The notes beneath the pieces were generated by a model, which saw only the letters and a program-made list of their open reading frames with translations, was not told where the DNA came from and made no database searches. 20,000 nucleotides of DNA, taken from the IMG/VR virus record IMGVR_UViG_3300025877_000002. One strand, given 5' to 3'. The position numbers and the translations under genes were made by a program. This document shows positions 2,067 to 15,585 of the stretch, piece by piece; the first letter of the stretch is position 1; each line of letters opens with the position of its first letter. Source of the stretch: an uncultured virus (IMG/VR IMGVR_UViG_3300025877_000002). Taxonomy: Duplodnaviria; Heunggongvirae; Uroviricota; Caudoviricetes.

Positions 2067-2879
2067 CTAAACTATCTCATCATCATCTTCAAAATCCGAT
2101 TCCCTCCGAACCTCATGTCTTACTTTACTACTTACTATAGTAGCAGCAGTATCGGTTGTAGGGATTAGGGATCCATCGGTATCAACCCCTTGTTGGTAAT
2201 TGGCTCTTACCTCAGGTAGGTCGTCTATATTATATTGTTCCTTTAATTGGTCCTTCAATTGAGGTTCGGTAAGGAGCCTCATTGGTTGTTCTGTATTCAT
2301 TAGTTTAATCGCTTTCTCTGGGGTCAGGGCATCGGATTCGGATTGAGGATTAGAGCCTGGTACCAGATAGTGATTAGGGCTTGCTGCCCTGTGGGATTGG
2401 TCTAAAGTACGGTAGAGATCCAGGAGATTTTTGTCTGCCGCCAGTGCACCCGATATGGCTCGGTTTACCTCACCAGAGATGTAGGGCTTGTATTTTCCCC
2501 CCTGACTTTTGAGCATCGTACCGAGCTGTAAATCAGCAGTTTGGCTGTGATTTAGGGATTTTTTTATAGCCCAATTTTTGATGACCCTAAGGGATTGGGC
2601 AGTGTCTTCTAGGTCTGAATCTGGTCCCATCCCTTGCATATAACCCATACGTTTGTATAGATACCTGATGATATACATAGTATCTAATTGTAAGTAAGTT
2701 GATACTTCGTCTATAGTAAGTGGTTTGTTGTTTACTGTTTGATTGTTTATGAAGTAAAGGTTTAGTATGTGATCTTTGATCTTCTTTAATTCTTCTTGTT
2801 TGTTGGCTGATGTGTTTAGTGATTGGGCTTGGAGAGTAACTCCTAGTGGTCTGGGTATCCTTTGAATCTTTGTTTTCAT
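2067..2879 (-). CDS. Phage hypothetical protein, 270 aa (HTH-like N-terminal region, acidic tail)
   Basis: Long ORF; LTIDEVSTYLQLDTMYIIRYL is HTH-like; motifs SQGGKYKPYIS and YNIDDLPEV resemble uncultured Bacteroidota phage proteins (from memory, unverified). Confidence 0.8.
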   Translation of the reverse strand: MKTKIQRIPRPLGVTLQAQSLNTSANKQEELKKIKDHILNLYFINNQTVNNKPLTIDEVSTYLQLDTMYIIRYLYKRMGYMQGMGPDSDLEDTAQSLRVIKNWAIKKSLNHSQTADLQLGTMLKSQGGKYKPYISGEVNRAISGALAADKNLLDLYRTLDQSHRAASPNHYLVPGSNPQSESDALTPEKAIKLMNTEQPMRLLTEPQLKDQLKEQYNIDDLPEVRANYQQGVDTDGSLIPTTDTAATIVSSKVRHEVRRESDFEDDDEIV

Positions 2880-3043
2880 TTTAGTTTGTTTTGTAGCTGG
2901 GTGGGGGTTGATCCGTATCTAGCTCCGAATGTGGCCATCTTAGCCTGTTCTCTTTGGTGGTCTGTAACCATTGAATAAGGTACATTGAACATCTTGGATG
3001 CGGCTAGTTTGTGTTGGTCCTTATATCTCCTGTTTGTTTTCAT
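2876..3043 (-). CDS. 55-aa stand-alone family A DNA polymerase fingers (O-helix/motif B) mini-protein (not in ORF track)
   Basis: MKTNRRYKDQHKLAASKMFNVPYSMVTDHQREQAKMATFGARYGSTPTQLQNKLK; gapless DxH...QRxxAKxxxFGxxYG pattern; ATGA overlaps at both ends. Confidence 0.8.
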   Translation of the reverse strand: MKTNRRYKDQHKLAASKMFNVPYSMVTDHQREQAKMATFGARYGSTPTQLQNKLK

Positions 3044-3321
3044 TTATGTTTGTTTGGTAGCATGATATCTACTGATAGTAGTTTACCGTCCTGATGTATG
3101 ATAGCCGATGGTAGTTCGGCATTCTTTAATTGGATTGGGTAGTTAGTTGTTGGTGGCGGGGTTAATAGGGAAATTAGTTTAGAACCGTCCTCTTGTTCTG
3201 GCATCCTGGCTTGGGATCGGATTAGGCAATGTCTGATGTTGTAGGCTTCCTCTTGGGATAGTTCTACTACTATAATTGGTTCTTTCCTTTTCTGGGTTAC
3301 AGGTCTGATGTATGTTTTCAT
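3040..3321 (-). CDS. Hypothetical protein, 93 aa
   Basis: ATGA overlaps on both sides. Confidence 0.7.
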   Translation of the reverse strand: MKTYIRPVTQKRKEPIIVVELSQEEAYNIRHCLIRSQARMPEQEDGSKLISLLTPPPTTNYPIQLKNAELPSAIIHQDGKLLSVDIMLPNKHK

Positions 3322-3581
3322 GATATCTGTATTACTTCTTGTTTGGTCGGTGACTGATGTTGTATCTGGTCCTCGTGATTCTTGATGTATTCTCTTGCGG
3401 TTTCCTCTGTCTGAATGTAGTCTACTAAGTAGGTAAAGGATCCATCTCGGTAGGAAAGGGTTTCGTAGTAGGAATAGATCCTGATCCCGAATAGTTTGAT
3501 ATGTACTTGTTTCTGGGGCCAGTATCGGATAGAGTTATTCTCCATGGTTACTTTCAGTATCCTGTATTTCCTTTGTTTCAT
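3318..3581 (-). CDS. Hypothetical protein, 87 aa (start revised to MKQRKYRILK)
   Basis: ATG at 3581 overlaps the TGA of 3578..3748. Confidence 0.7.
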   Translation of the reverse strand: MKQRKYRILKVTMENNSIRYWPQKQVHIKLFGIRIYSYYETLSYRDGSFTYLVDYIQTEETAREYIKNHEDQIQHQSPTKQEVIQIS

Positions 3582-3748
3582 TTCTTTGGTTCCTCCTGTT
3601 TGAATAGTAGTTGGCAGTAGACTACTGCCCCGTTGGTTTTGGACATGGTCATGGGTTCGTTTTTTATCCATCCGTCCTTGATGGCTTGGTTTAGCTCTTT
3701 TTCAAAGCTCTTAGCATGGAAACTGTATACGAGATAGTATGTGATCAT
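3578..3748 (-). CDS. DUF1737-like small protein, 56 aa (not in ORF track)
   Basis: MITYYLVYSFHAKSFEKELNQAIKDGWIKNEPMTMSKTNGAVVYCQLLFKQEEPKK; helix-GW...YxQ pattern; ATGA overlap. Confidence 0.6.
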   Translation of the reverse strand: MITYYLVYSFHAKSFEKELNQAIKDGWIKNEPMTMSKTNGAVVYCQLLFKQEEPKK

Positions 3749-3876
3749 GATTTGAGGTATATTAAGCTTAGTTAGGCTTGTCTAGAAATTAGTATTTATG
3801 AATTTAAGTGCAATTAGTTAGCTTGTTTAGCTGTTGATGCTAGATATTCTAATTCGTTGGGTCCTAAAGAGATAAG

Positions 3877-3902
3877 CACAGGGATAAATGAATATCCCTG
3901 TG
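3877..3902 (-). terminator. Perfect 10-bp hairpin, probable terminator or processing stem
   Basis: CACAGGGATA-aatgaa-TATCCCTGTG downstream of 3930..4400; weak U tract. Confidence 0.55.
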
Positions 3903-3929
3903 TGTAGTTAAGGGTTTGGAATTGATGGA

Positions 3930-4400
3930 TTAGCTGCTTAAAACTCTTAGCTTAGTAAGGTCTATTTTGGCAGCTATGATTTTGAGAATATTTAATGATT
4001 GTTCGGTATCCTCATCGTCCAGTGGGAAGTGATGGATTACTTCGTCCTCCCTGAAGGATAGAGGCATAGTTGTAGTGATTGGAAGATCGGGATCGGATGA
4101 GATCTTGAGGAAGCATTCGATCATCGGTACCTTAGAGCGTATTTCTATAAGGTTCAGGATAAGCCCTGTTTCTGGTTCTTGGCCTTTTGGGTATTCTCTG
4201 GCTTTAAGCATGAAATTGACATCCTCTTGGGTTTGTTTAATGATCAGGGCAAAGAATTCGGAAGTACCGTCTTTGTGTACCTTGGTTACGGGTTGCATTT
4301 CTGTTTCCTCGTAGATTAGTTGGAATTTCTCATTGAAGGGCTCCATCCGATTTAGGATCGGTAGCATGGCTTGGGTTAAATGTTCTTTAGCTTTTTTCAT
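3930..4400 (-). CDS. Hypothetical protein, 156 aa
   Basis: ORF in operon; TAACTAACC leader. Confidence 0.75.
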   Translation of the reverse strand: MKKAKEHLTQAMLPILNRMEPFNEKFQLIYEETEMQPVTKVHKDGTSEFFALIIKQTQEDVNFMLKAREYPKGQEPETGLILNLIEIRSKVPMIECFLKISSDPDLPITTTMPLSFREDEVIHHFPLDDEDTEQSLNILKIIAAKIDLTKLRVLSS

Positions 4401-4406
4401 GGTTAG

Positions 4407-4619
4407 TTAAGAGTTTGGAATTGATGGAACTTCTTTAGCAATTTGTCTTAGATCTTGGTCACCTACGATATCTTGTAAAGTGGTGTAGAGATAGCCATCC
4501 CAGCCTGTACCATCCAAGTCAAATTGGTTCATGGCTTCTTCTAGGTTTTCATGAGGTCCTGTGATATGCAGGTCTTCCCAGTAATCGGGATCATCTTTAA
4601 AGAATATGAATATGAGCAT
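4407..4619 (-). CDS. Small acidic hypothetical protein, 70 aa (probable paralog of 7034..7225)
   Basis: ORF in operon; shared FxFF...LxxA...GxxYxTLx[DE] pattern. Confidence 0.7.
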   Translation of the reverse strand: MLIFIFFKDDPDYWEDLHITGPHENLEEAMNQFDLDGTGWDGYLYTTLQDIVGDQDLRQIAKEVPSIPNS

Positions 4620-4631
4620 GGTTATAGGATT

Positions 4632-5027
4632 TTAGTTATCGTCCTCATCTTCGTCCTCATCATAGTCTTCGACCTGGTTTTCGATTATGACTGAGTCCTC
4701 CTTGATTTTTGTTTGGATTGCTCGTAACTCTTTGGGGGTTGGTTTTACGATGAGCAATACCATGTATAAGAGCAATTCCCGAGATCCTTCAGGACTTATG
4801 TCCTGTCCGAAGAGATCAGCTATTGCTCTTCGCAACCCGGTAGAACGTATTGTTTGGTCCATCAGATCGGCAATAATCCCCAAGCTGAGAACTGGATCTT
4901 TGTTTGGATCCCCCCCGACTATTGTCATGATTTGTTGCCTGGTTTCTTCAGGTAAAGTGTCTACTTTGTCGGTTACTTCCATTAAGTAACGATGTTGTTC
5001 GGATAGGGTTTCTTTAGCTTTTTTCAT
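4632..5027 (-). CDS. Hypothetical protein with acidic C-terminal tail, 131 aa
   Basis: Ends EDYDEDEDEDDN. Confidence 0.75.
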   Translation of the reverse strand: MKKAKETLSEQHRYLMEVTDKVDTLPEETRQQIMTIVGGDPNKDPVLSLGIIADLMDQTIRSTGLRRAIADLFGQDISPEGSRELLLYMVLLIVKPTPKELRAIQTKIKEDSVIIENQVEDYDEDEDEDDN

Positions 5028-5040
5028 GGTTTGTTAGTTG

Positions 5041-5625
5041 TTAGTTAGTTGTTATAGTGTTGCGGTAGAATTCGTAATCTGTATCATGTGGGTTATTCTT
5101 GATCAGGTCCTTGATGAACTTGGCGTATCGTTTCTCTTGTTTGGTTACTTCGCAGAGTTGGGCAAAGATGTCTATGAATCCCGGCATGTAATCAAAGAAG
5201 TCATCGTCCCCGCCGGCACTGAAGGCAGTATTGGCAGCAACCAGTTCGAATAGGTTAATGTAGGTTTCGAGTTCATCCTCATGTTTGAATTCCAGCCTGA
5301 TGATGGTACCAGTATCAAAGGGTTCAAGGTTTGTAAGATCCCAAGTATGGTTTGCTTTGTAATAGCCGGTAACTTCGTTGTTGATTTTCCCAAGCATTAC
5401 CCGTTGGTTAGCCTCGTCCATACGTTTGGTATTCTCCTCGGGTTCTTTGTGACGGATATTACCGTATCCGAAGGCCAGTTGGAGTATGTCTTCAGTTTCC
5501 ATTTGGTCATAGATTACTGAGGCTCGGTGATAGCCCTGGGGTAAAGTGTGTTCCCCGTAGTGGGGGTAGGAGATCAGGATAGATATGTTACCCCCGTCTG
5601 TTTTTGTGAGATGGTCTGTTTTCAT
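5041..5625 (-). CDS. Hypothetical protein, 194 aa
   Basis: Long ORF in operon. Confidence 0.75.
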   Translation of the reverse strand: MKTDHLTKTDGGNISILISYPHYGEHTLPQGYHRASVIYDQMETEDILQLAFGYGNIRHKEPEENTKRMDEANQRVMLGKINNEVTGYYKANHTWDLTNLEPFDTGTIIRLEFKHEDELETYINLFELVAANTAFSAGGDDDFFDYMPGFIDIFAQLCEVTKQEKRYAKFIKDLIKNNPHDTDYEFYRNTITTN

Positions 5626-5627
5626 GA

Positions 5628-5981
5628 TTAGTATTGGCCTGAGTAATGGATTATGAAATGTATAGAATGATCTGAAAGTTGGATTTGGAGTGAGTCGTCT
5701 TTTTCTGATACCCAGATAACATGTAAACCCCGGTCCAGTATTTTCTCTGGGTCATGCAGGTGTTCATCTGGTTCGATACGCATTAGCAGAGCATTGATCT
5801 GTTCAAACTGATCGTCATGTTCTTCTGTTTTATGAAAATGTTCTCGGTAAACTAGAACCTCAGTAGAGGATTCATCGCCGAGTTGTATCAATGAGGAATG
5901 TTGAAGATGGTAAGCATGGCCTAGTTGGGGCAGCATGTTGTTTTCCAGGATATCCTGAATTTTTTGTTGGATTGTTTTCAT
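5628..5981 (-). CDS. His-rich hypothetical protein, 117 aa
   Basis: TAATG overlap with upstream gene. Confidence 0.7.
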   Translation of the reverse strand: MKTIQQKIQDILENNMLPQLGHAYHLQHSSLIQLGDESSTEVLVYREHFHKTEEHDDQFEQINALLMRIEPDEHLHDPEKILDRGLHVIWVSEKDDSLQIQLSDHSIHFIIHYSGQY

Positions 5982-8537: not shown

Positions 8538-8626
8538 TTTATTTTTTATAATTATTTTATAATGCAAATATAATACCCTATTGGGATCCAATGCAAAACA
8601 TATTTTAAGAGCCTTAAAATTGGGTT
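8538..8626 (-). promoter_or_regulatory. Repeated phage promoter module, copy 2
   Basis: TTTG (8594-8597), 21 nt, TATATTTG (8565-8572). Confidence 0.85.
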
Positions 8627-9828: not shown

Positions 9829-9917
9829 TTTATTTTTTATAATTATTTTATAATGCAAATATATAACCCAATATAGCACCCATGCAATACATATTTTAAG
9901 AGCCTTAAAAATGGGTT
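9829..9917 (-). promoter_or_regulatory. Repeated phage promoter module, copy 3
   Basis: TTG (9885-9887), 21 nt, TATATTTG (9856-9863); flanks nearly identical to copy 2. Confidence 0.85.
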
Positions 9918-11448: not shown

Positions 11449-11516
11449 TTATAATGCAAATATATATCTCCAAATGGACCCATAGCAATACATTTTTTCA
11501 GGGCCTTTAATTTGGG
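11449..11516 (-). promoter_or_regulatory. Repeated phage promoter module, copy 4
   Basis: TTG (11486-11488), 21 nt, TATATTTG (11457-11464). Confidence 0.8.
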
Positions 11517-12459: not shown

Positions 12460-12537
12460 TTATATTATTTTATAATGCAAATATATAACCCATTAGTGAA
12501 CCCATGCAAATCATTTTTTCGGGGCTCTTAATTTAGG
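12460..12537 (-). promoter_or_regulatory. Repeated phage promoter module, copy 5 (overlaps 3' end of 12511..12804)
   Basis: TTTG (12507-12510), 21 nt, TATATTTG (12478-12485). Confidence 0.85.
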
Positions 12538-12804
12538 TTTAGTTAAGTAGGCCCATGAAATTACCTTCGTGTTTCCAGAGATACCTTCTATTAGCCATAG
12601 CCATGAGCCATCAGTATATGACCATCTCCTAGCGGGTCTCGGTACAGTTTCTTCTCTTCTATAGTTTCCCACTTTTTCCCATTCCCAATGTACTAACACT
12701 AGCTTGGAAATCTCTCTACCATATACCTTAGATAATTTCTTATCCACTTTAGGTAAGGATTCTGAAGCATCTCTCCAGATGATGGGTTTATACTTTGAGC
12801 TCAT
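12511..12804 (-). CDS. DUF551-like phage protein
   Basis: WRDASESLPK...VLV...VISWAYL pattern. Confidence 0.6.
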   Translation of the reverse strand: MSSKYKPIIWRDASESLPKVDKKLSKVYGREISKLVLVHWEWEKVGNYRREETVPRPARRWSYTDGSWLWLIEGISGNTKVISWAYLTKPKLRAPKK

Positions 12805-13553
12805 GATAGCAGGCCTCTATTGAATGTTGATCCCCCGTTTACTCCTTTATTCAGGGATACTGATCTTCCAGCTTCTCTTCCCATTTCTAATCCCCCTCTT
12901 GCTGATCTCTTCGTCATGGATCGAGATGTTCTAACTCGGTAGGCAGAGTTATCAATGTACTCCTTGATTTCCTGTCCCGATACTCTGATCAATCCAGTGA
13001 TCTTAGAATCCTGTTGGGACATTTGCTCAACTGTAGTTGAAAGCCTTTGCCCAATGGATTGAACACATCCAGTTAAAAAGCCCCGTATAAAGGCTCCCCG
13101 TTTTTCATGTCCCAAGTATTCGGAGAATGCCTTTCGAGCAAGGTTCCTGATTAGTGGGACTAGGTATGAAGCGAAGTATTCCACTACTTGCCTGTTAGCC
13201 TGTGTGCCAAAGAGGATAATGTCTTTGCCGCCTCCTTTCTTGTGGGATCGGGTCATTAATACAAAGCAGAGATTATTCTTTGCAATGTGGTGGTACAGGG
13301 TGGGTATCCAGTCCCCTTCCTTACCAGAGGTCATCTCTGATGTTTCAATCCTATCTTCAGTGATGGGAGCTTTGGTTGTACCAAAGGCTCGGGCATCATC
13401 TTCCGAGAGATTGTATTGCATTAAAATTTGTTGGGCTCTTGCAGCAGCATTCTCAGCTTCTGCTAGTGAACCAACTGCCTTTGCTCCTTCTGCAAGGTTA
13501 AGCAGTTTGTTGAGACGCTTCAGTACATCGTCCGGAATCGTTTGATTTGCCAT
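12801..13553 (-). CDS. DUF2786 domain-containing protein
   Basis: VLKRLNKLLNLAE...EAENAAARAQQILMQYNLS N-terminal signature; C-terminal FIRGF and GREAGRSVSLN. Confidence 0.85.
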   Translation of the reverse strand: MANQTIPDDVLKRLNKLLNLAEGAKAVGSLAEAENAAARAQQILMQYNLSEDDARAFGTTKAPITEDRIETSEMTSGKEGDWIPTLYHHIAKNNLCFVLMTRSHKKGGGKDIILFGTQANRQVVEYFASYLVPLIRNLARKAFSEYLGHEKRGAFIRGFLTGCVQSIGQRLSTTVEQMSQQDSKITGLIRVSGQEIKEYIDNSAYRVRTSRSMTKRSARGGLEMGREAGRSVSLNKGVNGGSTFNRGLLS

Positions 13554-14477: not shown

Positions 14478-14540
14478 TTATTATAATGCAAAATTATATC
14501 CCAATTGAACCCAATGCAAAACATATTTTCAAGGCCTTTA
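14478..14540 (-). promoter_or_regulatory. Repeated phage promoter module, copy 6
   Basis: TTTG (14517-14520), 20 nt, TAATTTTG (14489-14496). Confidence 0.85.
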
Positions 14541-14819
14541 ATATCGGGTTTGTGATGTGTTTTTTTCTATGTCTTCCAATACGTCCCTAGTAGTCCTCTT
14601 CTTAGGCTTGGTTATTGTGTATGGGACTGTATCATAGTGATTAGAAGTGTCTTCTACATAAATATATTCCTTAATTGGGGGAGGCGGTACAGGTTCCAGC
14701 CATATACCGACAAACACAAGAAATCCCACTACTAATAGCGGGATTCCGAAATATTTAGCAAAAAACTTGGAGGCCTGTTTTACAGCAGCCATTTCCTCAG
14801 GGGTCATTTCCTTAGCCAT
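14538..14819 (-). CDS. Single-pass membrane protein, 93 aa
   Basis: YFGIPLLVVGFLVFVGIWL transmembrane segment followed by poly-Pro. Confidence 0.7.
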   Translation of the reverse strand: MAKEMTPEEMAAVKQASKFFAKYFGIPLLVVGFLVFVGIWLEPVPPPPIKEYIYVEDTSNHYDTVPYTITKPKKRTTRDVLEDIEKNTSQTRY

Positions 14820-15316
14820 TTTGGTGTTTTTCTTTTGGTGTACTTATGAAGATGTTGTTTGTGCCTTTTATAATACATTCGGTAGGCAAGAACTGTATCG
14901 TCTATCTGCAAGTCTTCATCCTCCCCCACTACGGCAATAAATAAGAAGGGTTCAGAGGAATCAAAGCTGTTATCTAATATAATCTGCTGGAATAATTCAT
15001 GCAGTCTTCTAGCTTTAATGAATTTATCCTTATTCCCGAATCGGAAGTCGTATTCTTTGATTAGATAACCTAAGAACTGGGTTAGCCATACAAAATTCCT
15101 TTGGTGTTGCTGAACCCATAGAGTGCAGGGGTGATTGAGATGAGTACGGTTATATACCTGGTCCTTGTAGGATTGACTAAATGTAGTTTTGCCCACATGT
15201 GTATTTATCCCGTTTGAGAGAAGTTGACAGGTTTCTGTAATCAGCTTGATTATATGCTTATCCCCGTGGTATCTAGCAGCCCATTTAGGATCCTTGGATA
15301 GGACGAAGATGTTCAT
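14804..15316 (-). CDS. denV: Pyrimidine dimer DNA glycosylase / endonuclease V-like protein
   Basis: MNIFVLSKDP..AA.YH.DKH.IK...E..QLLS and THLNHPCTLW motifs of the Pyr_excise-related phage family. Confidence 0.75.
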   Translation of the reverse strand: MNIFVLSKDPKWAARYHGDKHIIKLITETCQLLSNGINTHVGKTTFSQSYKDQVYNRTHLNHPCTLWVQQHQRNFVWLTQFLGYLIKEYDFRFGNKDKFIKARRLHELFQQIILDNSFDSSEPFLFIAVVGEDEDLQIDDTVLAYRMYYKRHKQHLHKYTKRKTPKWLRK

Positions 15317-15585
15317 ATATCGATGAATACGGATTTAGCAACTACTATTTTGTCATTGTTCCGAAGGTTGGAGTGAATCCATGATCCTCGGGATTCAGCA
15401 TTCATAAATTCCTCAAACTTCTTCGCTGATACGGGAGCGTAGTGATAAACGAATTTGCGATCCGAGAATACCACGTGCATCGTGTTCCCCGAGTGAGCCA
15501 CCATCTCGAGGTTTGAGGAAGTTAGGATTTGGGTCCAAGTGACCGAACTCTGATTGAATTCCACTTGTTGGATTGGGTTTGGCAT
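15313..15585 (-). CDS. KTSC domain protein
   Basis: SSNLEMVAH...MHVVF...YHYAPV....EEFMNAESRGSWIHSNLR. Confidence 0.85.
   Translation of the reverse strand: MPNPIQQVEFNQSSVTWTQILTSSNLEMVAHSGNTMHVVFSDRKFVYHYAPVSAKKFEEFMNAESRGSWIHSNLRNNDKIVVAKSVFIDI

Follow-up and report, generated by a model that had tools for sequence, protein, structure and literature searches.

A 55-residue phage protein consisting of the fingers helices of family A DNA polymerases belongs to an overlooked family of mini-proteins and is encoded by an optional cassette

What is a gene that encodes nothing but the nucleotide-gripping helices of a family A DNA polymerase (PolA) doing in a phage that already carries a complete polymerase? 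The question is raised by a 20,000-nucleotide stretch of DNA from an uncultured tailed virus (IMG/VR record IMGVR_UViG_3300025877_000002, Caudoviricetes), the whole of which was analysed and is called the window below; it comes from a virus record of 60,576 bp with an estimated completeness of 71%. On its minus strand, positions 2876..3043 encode a stand-alone protein of 55 amino acids (aa) that corresponds to helices N, O and O1 of the PolA fingers and includes motif B, as deduced from the list of open reading frames (ORFs), from Pfam and from an alignment with the Klenow fragment of Escherichia coli DNA polymerase I (Pol I). We refer to this gene and its product as the mini-gene and the mini-protein, and to the short proteins resembling it as minis.

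The mini-gene is a genuine, intact and translationally coupled gene, a conclusion that we hold with high confidence. Two ATGA overlaps tie it to the adjacent genes: its start codon (3043-3041) shares bases with the TGA that ends a 93-aa ORF upstream (3040..3321), and its own TGA (2878-2876) shares bases with the ATG of a 270-aa ORF downstream (2067..2879), all three genes lying on the minus strand. Counting charged residues in the sequence gives the mini-protein a net charge of +8, and its homology to PolA is, by profile and pairwise searches, far beyond chance. Residues 5-55 matched Pfam PF00476 (DNA_pol_A) with an expectation value (E) of 7.6e-10 and a score of 38.7 bits, above the curated cut-off of 34.3, and covered only profile positions 181-231 of 381 (51 positions). 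A custom 507-position profile, built from 43 long PolAs and run with filters off against all stop-to-stop segments of at least 15 aa in the six frames of the window, recovered the mini-protein with E 8.9e-18. The scores against two NCBIfam models, NF004397 for Pol I (33.6 bits) and TIGR00593 (25.7 bits), were far under the respective cut-offs of 720 and 600. A phmmer search of Protein Data Bank (PDB) sequences aligned residues 7-50 without gaps to positions 407-450 of the 605-residue Klenow chain, with 17 of 44 residues identical. Given that chain position 1 is what we take to be Pol I residue 324, H11, R31, K35, F39 and Y43 of the mini-protein are the equivalents of H734, R754, K758, F762 and Y766. 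The mini-protein thus carries the Arg, Lys, Phe and Tyr of motif B in the O-helix and lacks palm motifs A, with its catalytic Asp, and C; because these are missing from the ORF and from its flanks, it is unable to polymerise.

These results agree with what a first-pass annotation, made from the sequence alone, had read in the locus: a stand-alone 55-aa ORF coupled by ATGA on both sides (now confirmed in the ORF list), a gapless likeness to the Pol I fingers with about 17 of 46 residues identical, retention of the five residues listed above, and no palm motif A or C in the flanking ORFs, hence no polymerisation, for which Pfam, the six-frame scan described below and the 507-position profile all speak. 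The profile match to PF00476 that it proposed to look for is significant. It had also argued that the ORF is not the decaying fragment of a local polymerase, and this view stood up: frameshifted polA remnants in the flanking DNA, which would have spoken against it, were looked for in six frames and none were found.

Almost certainly, the mini-gene is not a fragment of the phage's complete PolA and not a copy of it either. That PolA, located in the same record about 30 kb from the mini-gene, has 715 aa, an exonuclease and a polymerase part, and its own complete motif B. A six-frame scan of the whole record returned exactly two PolA matches at E≤10, the mini-ORF and this 715-aa protein. With the 507-position profile, no other PolA-like stretch was detected in any frame of the window (next best E 0.21), and the six ORFs around the mini-gene had no PolA match in Pfam at E≤1. 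BLASTP found no similarity between the mini-protein and the 715-aa PolA (E 48), whose N/O region holds an insert of about 20 residues. An identical mini-protein is recorded on seven contigs, the longest of 82,823 bp, and the same phage is also found on an 81,056-bp metagenome contig. What a split PolA should leave, namely complementary pieces nearby and no intact PolA elsewhere, is not what was found here. Three specific origins were considered and set aside: a recent copy of the phage's own PolA was ruled out by the BLASTP result, hidden polA remnants in the flanks by the six-frame scan and the window profile search, and an association with a homing endonuclease or intron found no support, as the 41 window ORFs scanned against Pfam contained no homing-endonuclease domain or any other nuclease domain.

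Sequence comparisons indicate that the mini-protein is very probably a member of a widespread phage family of PolA-fingertip mini-proteins. A phmmer search of 1.84 billion representative proteins gave 20 non-self matches at E≤1e-3, which were sorted by eye into 12 short proteins of 58-146 aa that have a Met of their own and ends unrelated to PolA, four long PolAs, and four that were dropped (one with ends derived from a sequencing adapter and three fragments whose tails are out of frame). When 13 minis were combined into a profile, it retrieved 47 proteins of 49-166 aa, several of them on contigs of 54-63 kb and thus not cut off by a contig end. Like these, the window mini-protein falls within about 50-150 aa, has its own start and stop, and has the N/O segment as its only recognisable part. 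Proteins of one large subgroup, 92-98 aa long, also carry a degenerate motif A, with Asn at the position of the catalytic Asp, and some family members are fused to other domains. In one 98-aa member (P0002) the N/O-helix module occurs twice in tandem, and its first copy is strongly degenerate.

The family includes genes of cultured phages, namely fBA2_005 of the Acinetobacter Friunavirus fBenAci002 (59 aa, with the record note 'DNA_pol_A superfamily') and ORF5 of Pectobacterium phage PPWS2 (60 aa, annotated 'DNA polymerase'). Small genes surround both of them, close to the left end of the respective Autographiviridae genomes, and that of fBenAci002 lies upstream of the primase gene. The suspicion in the first-pass annotation that similar short ORFs are mislabelled as polymerases in databases was therefore well founded, and stand-alone homologues under purifying selection, whose absence it had named as a result that would count against it, do exist, with selection that is weak to moderate, as detailed below. 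The Friunavirus group corresponds to phrog_38792 ('unknown function'), whose profile scored 146 bits against its own member and 33.5 bits against the window mini-protein.

Minis are rare beside true polymerases, as only three of 20 other IMG/VR loci fetched by the family pattern were minis (60, 61 and 122 aa; the other 17 were longer PolA ORFs), and only one of 80 JGI metagenome loci, from the same phage, was a mini, the remaining 79 being ORFs of at least 206 aa and mostly bacterial Pol I of about 883 aa; the pattern used for the metagenomes, ASK[MI]FNVP, fits long PolAs too. The nearest look-alikes in the ESM Atlas, clusters of 64-109 members with representatives of 69-72 aa, are leads only. 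Word-index protein searches, which carry little weight, found the mini-protein itself as the only near neighbour and no longer forms, and megablast of the window against GenBank phages gave no match. A match in a SPO1-like Bacillus phage labelled 'hypothetical protein' turned out to be an ordinary PolA of 1101 aa.

In an alignment of 37 minis, from which the Friunavirus members were left out, D9, A15, F19, R31 and K35 were invariant, and V21, V26, T27, A34 and Y43 were conserved in at least 90%; the window mini-protein has all five invariant residues. The equivalent of H734 is not fixed in the family, several members having Tyr. The five genomic contexts examined had no neighbour genes in common, and all five genomes also encoded a full-length PolA. 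A tree was built on 42 alignment columns from 47 minis together with 73 longer PolAs; the mini or long label could be mapped onto it with only three changes, against a mean of 37.5 after shuffling, and none of 500 shuffles was as low. One or few origins for the minis are suggested by this sequence tree, not shown, because it is poorly resolved and the long set was picked by motif.

The window mini-protein is placed in the same tree as sister to the 138-aa P0003, with a Shimodaira-Hasegawa-like approximate likelihood ratio (SH-aLRT) support of 83. Downstream of its PolA-like part, P0003 resembles the C-terminal end of the window 93-aa ORF (8 of 14 residues identical, E 0.002 in a single comparison) and then carries a CxxC...CxxC motif; the likeness may reflect a fusion of neighbouring genes or chance. 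Another observation concerns an 86-kb phage with a 61-aa mini (locus L019), where the PolA frame (3217-5388) stops near motif C after 723 aa and a separate 109-aa ORF (5590-5919), which presumably resembles the C-terminal end of T7-type PolA, follows about 200 bp downstream, with the mini directly after. This arrangement could represent a split, a frameshift or an intervening element.

There is little doubt that the mini-gene is an optional, dispensable cassette bounded by two 13-nt direct repeats. A motif search located the exact 13-nt sequence AAATGAAAACAAA on the minus strand at 3033..3045, spanning the point at which the 93-aa ORF stops and the mini-gene starts, and at 2869..2881, spanning that at which the mini-gene stops and the 270-aa ORF starts, each copy consisting of the stop/start junction plus the first codons (MKT...). 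These were the only two matches in the window at ≤1 mismatch, where 0.33 were expected, and two were reached in 5 of 200 shuffles; several genes nearby begin with the same ATGAAAACA. Related strains were compared using contigs assembled from public wastewater runs, 95-99% alike in the flanks; libraries labelled RNA-Seq among these may hold DNA, and the contigs are read here as strain variants and not as transcription. In run X1, position 2881 is joined to 3047 by 382 other letters, and in run X4 position 2885 is joined to 3047 by 174 other letters; in both the mini-gene is absent and the 93-aa ORF is kept. Run X5, a metatranscriptome, joins 2891 to 3318 with 121 other letters, so that both the mini-gene and the 93-aa gene are lost, and holds only the strain without the mini-gene. 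In run X2 the form with the mini-gene was present at a depth of 5.8 compared with 55-62 for the flanks, and the strain lacking it keeps the 93-aa ORF. The downstream 270-aa ORF is conserved in the related strains, with nine differences in 840 nt. The joints at 2881 or 2885 and 3047 coincide with the borders of the 13-nt repeats.

The same variable-slot arrangement, with conserved flanks and differing content in related genomes, was found in Friunavirus, where the mini is a clean 172-bp presence or absence between a 199-aa gene and a small membrane-protein gene, and where phage ZC2 has another insert at the same point. Mini DNA was present in 33 phage records compared with 156 that contain the flank, about a fifth. 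The whole stretch around the window mini-gene is a mosaic of swappable small genes. In the same strains without the mini-gene, part of a 117-aa ORF is swapped (248 nt replaced by 110 other letters, within 3322-3571) and a 499-nt deletion (3913-4413), with 16 nt of microhomology, removes a 156-aa ORF. On the minus strand, the 156- and 131-aa ORFs (3930-4400 and 4632-5027) begin with the same 18 nt, ATGAAAAAAGCTAAAGAA (MKKAKE), and may be paralogues or share a recombination-prone start. From the 13-nt repeats, the shared gene starts and the 16-nt microhomology we infer that junction microhomology is a plausible driver of the cassette exchange.

The predicted structure is compatible with an isolated fingers hairpin. 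An AlphaFold2 model from a 13-sequence alignment had a mean predicted local distance difference test score (pLDDT) of 76.8, with three helices and core blocks of 86-94. On the minus strand, the equivalent of helix N (codons 10-19, 2987..3016, block pLDDT 93) would hold H11, A15 and F19, and the O-helix equivalent (codons 28-43, 2915..2962), also delimited by the Klenow alignment, would hold R31, K35, F39 and Y43; a short O1-like third helix (codons 47-53, 2885..2905) was predicted with low confidence (block pLDDT 55-62). The first-pass annotation had proposed an overlay on the Klenow O-helix; the model was compared with known structures in Foldseek, in which the best 50 PDB rows were all family A polymerases, with query-normalised template modelling scores (TMq) of 0.53-0.70 and, in several rows, a root-mean-square deviation (rmsd) of 0.5-1.8 Å over 30-42 residues, the lowest being 0.5 Å over 30 residues. 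The E-values were 0.07 or worse and not significant, because the model is so short, and the match of the modelled fold rests on ranking and rmsd, not on significance.

IMG/VR and JGI scans with the mini-gene or its 270-aa neighbour found only the same phage, 99.9-100% alike. Selection was assessed on six Friunavirus copies, in which the pairwise ratio of nonsynonymous to synonymous substitution rates (dN/dS) was 0.18-0.53 in the 14 pairs with amino-acid differences, all below 1, with 15 of the 29 variable sites at third codon positions; for the adjoining gene the ratio was 0.01-0.06. As estimated from these sequences, the constraint on Friunavirus minis is real but weak, as expected of an accessory gene. 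In phages Pipo (locus L118, 181-510) and W8 (L119), Arg is back at the position equivalent to R754 and a (TA)n run interrupts the O-helix; the Pipo mini frame continues into the next gene, annotated 'putative DNA-binding protein'.

What, then, might such a protein do? The first-pass annotation had suggested a binder of nucleotides or alarmones, a decoy aimed at a defence sensor that recognises polymerases, or a dominant-negative modulator of replication as possible roles. Our working interpretation, held tentatively, is that the mini-protein is an optional member of the PolA-fingertip family that acts as a non-catalytic nucleotide or DNA binder in phage conflict. It would be a small, very basic (+8) helical hairpin that keeps the phosphate-gripping R31 and K35 and the stacking Y43, and an isolated N/O hairpin would leave R31 and K35 exposed to solvent. 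The invariance of R31 and K35, the retention of Y43 and the charge of +8 point to a phosphate-rich ligand, either a nucleoside triphosphate or DNA, and the hairpin might bind a triphosphate-bearing nucleotide or a DNA end without catalysis; this binding mechanism, taken by itself, is possible and is advanced with slightly more reserve. The phage would use the mini-protein as a dispensable accessory factor against the host or rival phages; it might, for instance, sequester a nucleotide or primer-template or compete for one. A role in conflict fits the location of the mini-gene, whose slot is swapped between strains and whose neighbours are small genes of unknown function; according to the abstract of a preprint (10.1101/2023.04.06.535777), phage accessory genes mostly counter host defences.

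Several observations weigh against this interpretation. The claim of ligand binding, for all family members, rests on sequence and models, and a single 6-kDa hairpin is unlikely to serve as a stoichiometric nucleotide sponge. Known nucleotide-binding phage sponges, of the Tad1, Tad2 and Acb2 type, are defined by high-affinity capture of an immune signal in an oligomeric pocket. Friunavirus members have Tyr, Gln and Arg at the positions of H11, R31 and K35, and the Gly of 'FG' and 'YG', kept in the window mini-protein, is lost in many members. The residues conserved in minis are also the most conserved residues of PolA, and because similarity searches only find members that keep them, their conservation carries an ascertainment bias. 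The tree has 42 columns and leaves 75 of 117 inner branches unresolved, with long PolAs chosen by a shared motif; the Foldseek E-values fall short of significance, and AlphaFold may merely reproduce the PolA fold. The gene is absent from about four fifths of the Friunavirus records and from the more abundant strains of the window phage. A single haplotype of the window mini-gene is known. In Friunavirus the dN/dS of the mini is about ten times that of the neighbouring gene and the copies of Pipo and W8 are cut short by the TA repeat inside the O-helix.

Rather than binding a ligand, the hairpin could mimic the surface of polymerase fingers and titrate a host factor or defence sensor without activating it, which we consider rather unlikely. 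The presence of a full-length PolA in five of five genomes examined, the small genes that surround the cultured minis at the left end of their Autographiviridae genomes, and a slot that is swapped between strains, together with the defence-countering tendency of accessory genes reported in the preprint abstract cited above, would all suit such a decoy. However, with no BLASTP likeness to the phage's own PolA and the insert of about 20 residues in the N/O region of the latter, the mini-protein would be a poor decoy for that enzyme, and co-occurrence with PolA (n=5) may only mark where such fragments arise. No partner is known, PADLOC gave no match, and surface mimicry alone does not predict the invariance of R31 and K35.

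It is likewise doubtful that the mini-gene is a largely or wholly functionless passenger, a PolA fragment that illegitimate recombination captured and that then travelled as a small cassette, its frame staying open since it is short and tight gene packing selects for intact stop/start junctions. Dispensability, the minority status of the form that carries it (depth 5.8 vs 55-62), its presence in 33 Friunavirus records against 156 with the flank, relaxed constraint relative to the neighbouring gene (dN/dS 0.18-0.53 vs 0.01-0.06), the shortened variants in Pipo and W8 and the loss of O-helix glycines in many members are what such a passenger would show, and the 13-nt junction repeats offer a simple route of gain and loss. 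Yet the family comprises dozens of members, about 30-55% identical to the window mini-protein, all with intact ORFs, invariant residues and unrelated neighbours. That they cluster apart from long PolAs argues for long-term upkeep as coding sequence, dN/dS was below 1 in 14 of 14 informative pairs, and one member has a tandem module and others are fused to other domains.

A broader form of the ligand-binding interpretation, distinctly unlikely in our estimation, is that minis are a widespread class of non-catalytic binders of nucleotides or primer ends, exchanged as cassettes against nucleotide-based or polymerase-directed immunity. They might capture chain-terminating or signalling nucleotides, or shield, or act as decoys for, what attacks PolA-type replication; if they did counter immunity against PolA-type replication, this would explain why minis have so far been seen only in phages with a PolA of their own.

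Still less probable is an action of the hairpin on the phage PolA or on host Pol I, either dominant-negative or through a change in substrate choice. The co-occurrence of full-length PolA in five of five genomes and the position of the mini two genes downstream of polA in the 86-kb phage are in line with this, but the phage PolA carries a complete motif B, so that there is nothing for the mini-protein to complement, a free N/O hairpin has no known docking site on folded PolA, and in the window phage the mini-gene is dispensable and about 30 kb away from polA. Finally, that the mini-gene is a piece of a split or interrupted polA (an exon, an intein or a homing-endonuclease split) or a homing scar is scarcely credible and already largely refuted: split PolAs exist, including one of 619 aa (P0008) that begins at the same point as the mini-ORF and the exonuclease/polymerase splitting in T7-like phages described in PMC10201439, and in PPWS2 a gene for an HNH endonuclease precedes the mini by about 900 bp, but here no other PolA piece occurs in any frame of the 20-kb window, nor elsewhere in the 60.6-kb record besides the intact 715-aa gene, Pfam revealed no homing-endonuclease or nuclease domain among the 41 window ORFs scanned, and the annotated features that surround the fBenAci002 mini include no endonuclease.

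The remaining genes of the window add context. Neither the upstream 93-aa ORF, kept in X1, X2 and X4 and lost with the mini-gene in X5, nor the downstream 270-aa ORF could be assigned to a family in Pfam, PHROG, NCBIfam or PADLOC, and the 270-aa ORF gave sub-threshold leads only in the Atlas. PADLOC, which covers defence proteins only, had no match. On the minus strand, Pfam identified a Pyr_excise pyrimidine-dimer DNA glycosylase (14804-15316, E 1.5e-7), a KTSC-domain protein (15313-15585, E 1.2e-8) and a DUF2786/DUF7168 protein (12801-13553); the remaining window ORFs scanned had no family above the Pfam cut-off. A 12-nt motif, TTTGCAYTATAA, occurs six times on the coding strand compared with 0.41 expected, a number reached in 0 of 200 shuffles. 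Its minus-strand copies (1853-1864, 8557-8568, 9848-9859, 11449-11460, 12470-12481 and 14481-14492), several of them in gaps just upstream of gene starts, resemble a promoter element of phage or host origin, in which case the mini-gene would belong to a transcription unit that extends from about 8560 to about 1870.

Members of the family were already catalogued as a PHROG of unknown function and as GenBank ORFs labelled 'DNA polymerase' or 'hypothetical'; what is new is a family A polymerase derivative with a non-enzymatic architecture. Our full-text literature search, which covered neither subscription journals nor supplements, found no paper on stand-alone PolA-fingers proteins. Family A polymerases are among the best-studied enzymes, yet minis made of their dNTP (deoxynucleoside triphosphate)-gripping helices had been overlooked, and a recurrent fingertip family went unseen because the largest recent classification, a broad one of 2023, removed all PF00476 sequences shorter than 350 aa (PMC10201439). 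Should minis fold and bind a ligand alone, they would constitute a natural module of minimal size for binding nucleotides or DNA, would add a new class to the genes that serve phages as accessories or in conflict, and would provide a case study of the reuse of an essential-enzyme fragment; should they be functionless, they would be a clean example of junction microhomology shuffling small phage cassettes. The question is open to direct test, with only 55 residues, cultured Friunavirus phages with and without the cassette, and obvious point-mutant controls.

Compared with known systems, the mini-protein is closest in sequence to the PolA fingers of E. coli Klenow, Bst and Taq, sharing the same N/O/O1 segment with motif B in a predicted fold that superposes on theirs. 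It differs from these enzymes in being a separate gene that spans about 50 of 381 Pfam positions and is devoid of motifs A and C, thumb and exonuclease domain. Friunavirus phrog_38792 and PPWS2 ORF5 are likewise short ORFs with the same PolA segment in phages that have a full PolA, and this group shares with the window mini-gene the character of optional cassettes inserted exactly at gene junctions. In contrast, the window mini-protein is only a remote match to phrog_38792 (33.5 vs 146 bits), belongs to an unrelated phage of about 81-83 kb with other neighbours, and retains Arg and Lys as the equivalents of R754 and K758, which in the Friunavirus members are Gln and Arg. A laboratory peptide, unlike the mini-protein not the product of a gene, provides a biochemical precedent for it, having reportedly consisted of Pol I residues 728-777, the same segment in isolation. 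By the titles of two papers (Mullen, Shenbagamurthi and Mildvan 1989, J Biol Chem 264:19637; Mullen, Vaughn and Mildvan 1993, Arch Biochem Biophys 301:174), as given in the reference list of PMC4082485, a synthetic 50-residue peptide of E. coli DNA polymerase I binds substrate and DNA. Split family A polymerases, with separate exonuclease and polymerase genes in T7-like cyanophages, also distribute PolA sequence over more than one phage gene (PMC10201439); their parts sum to a whole enzyme, whereas here the whole enzyme is encoded elsewhere and the mini-protein is extra.

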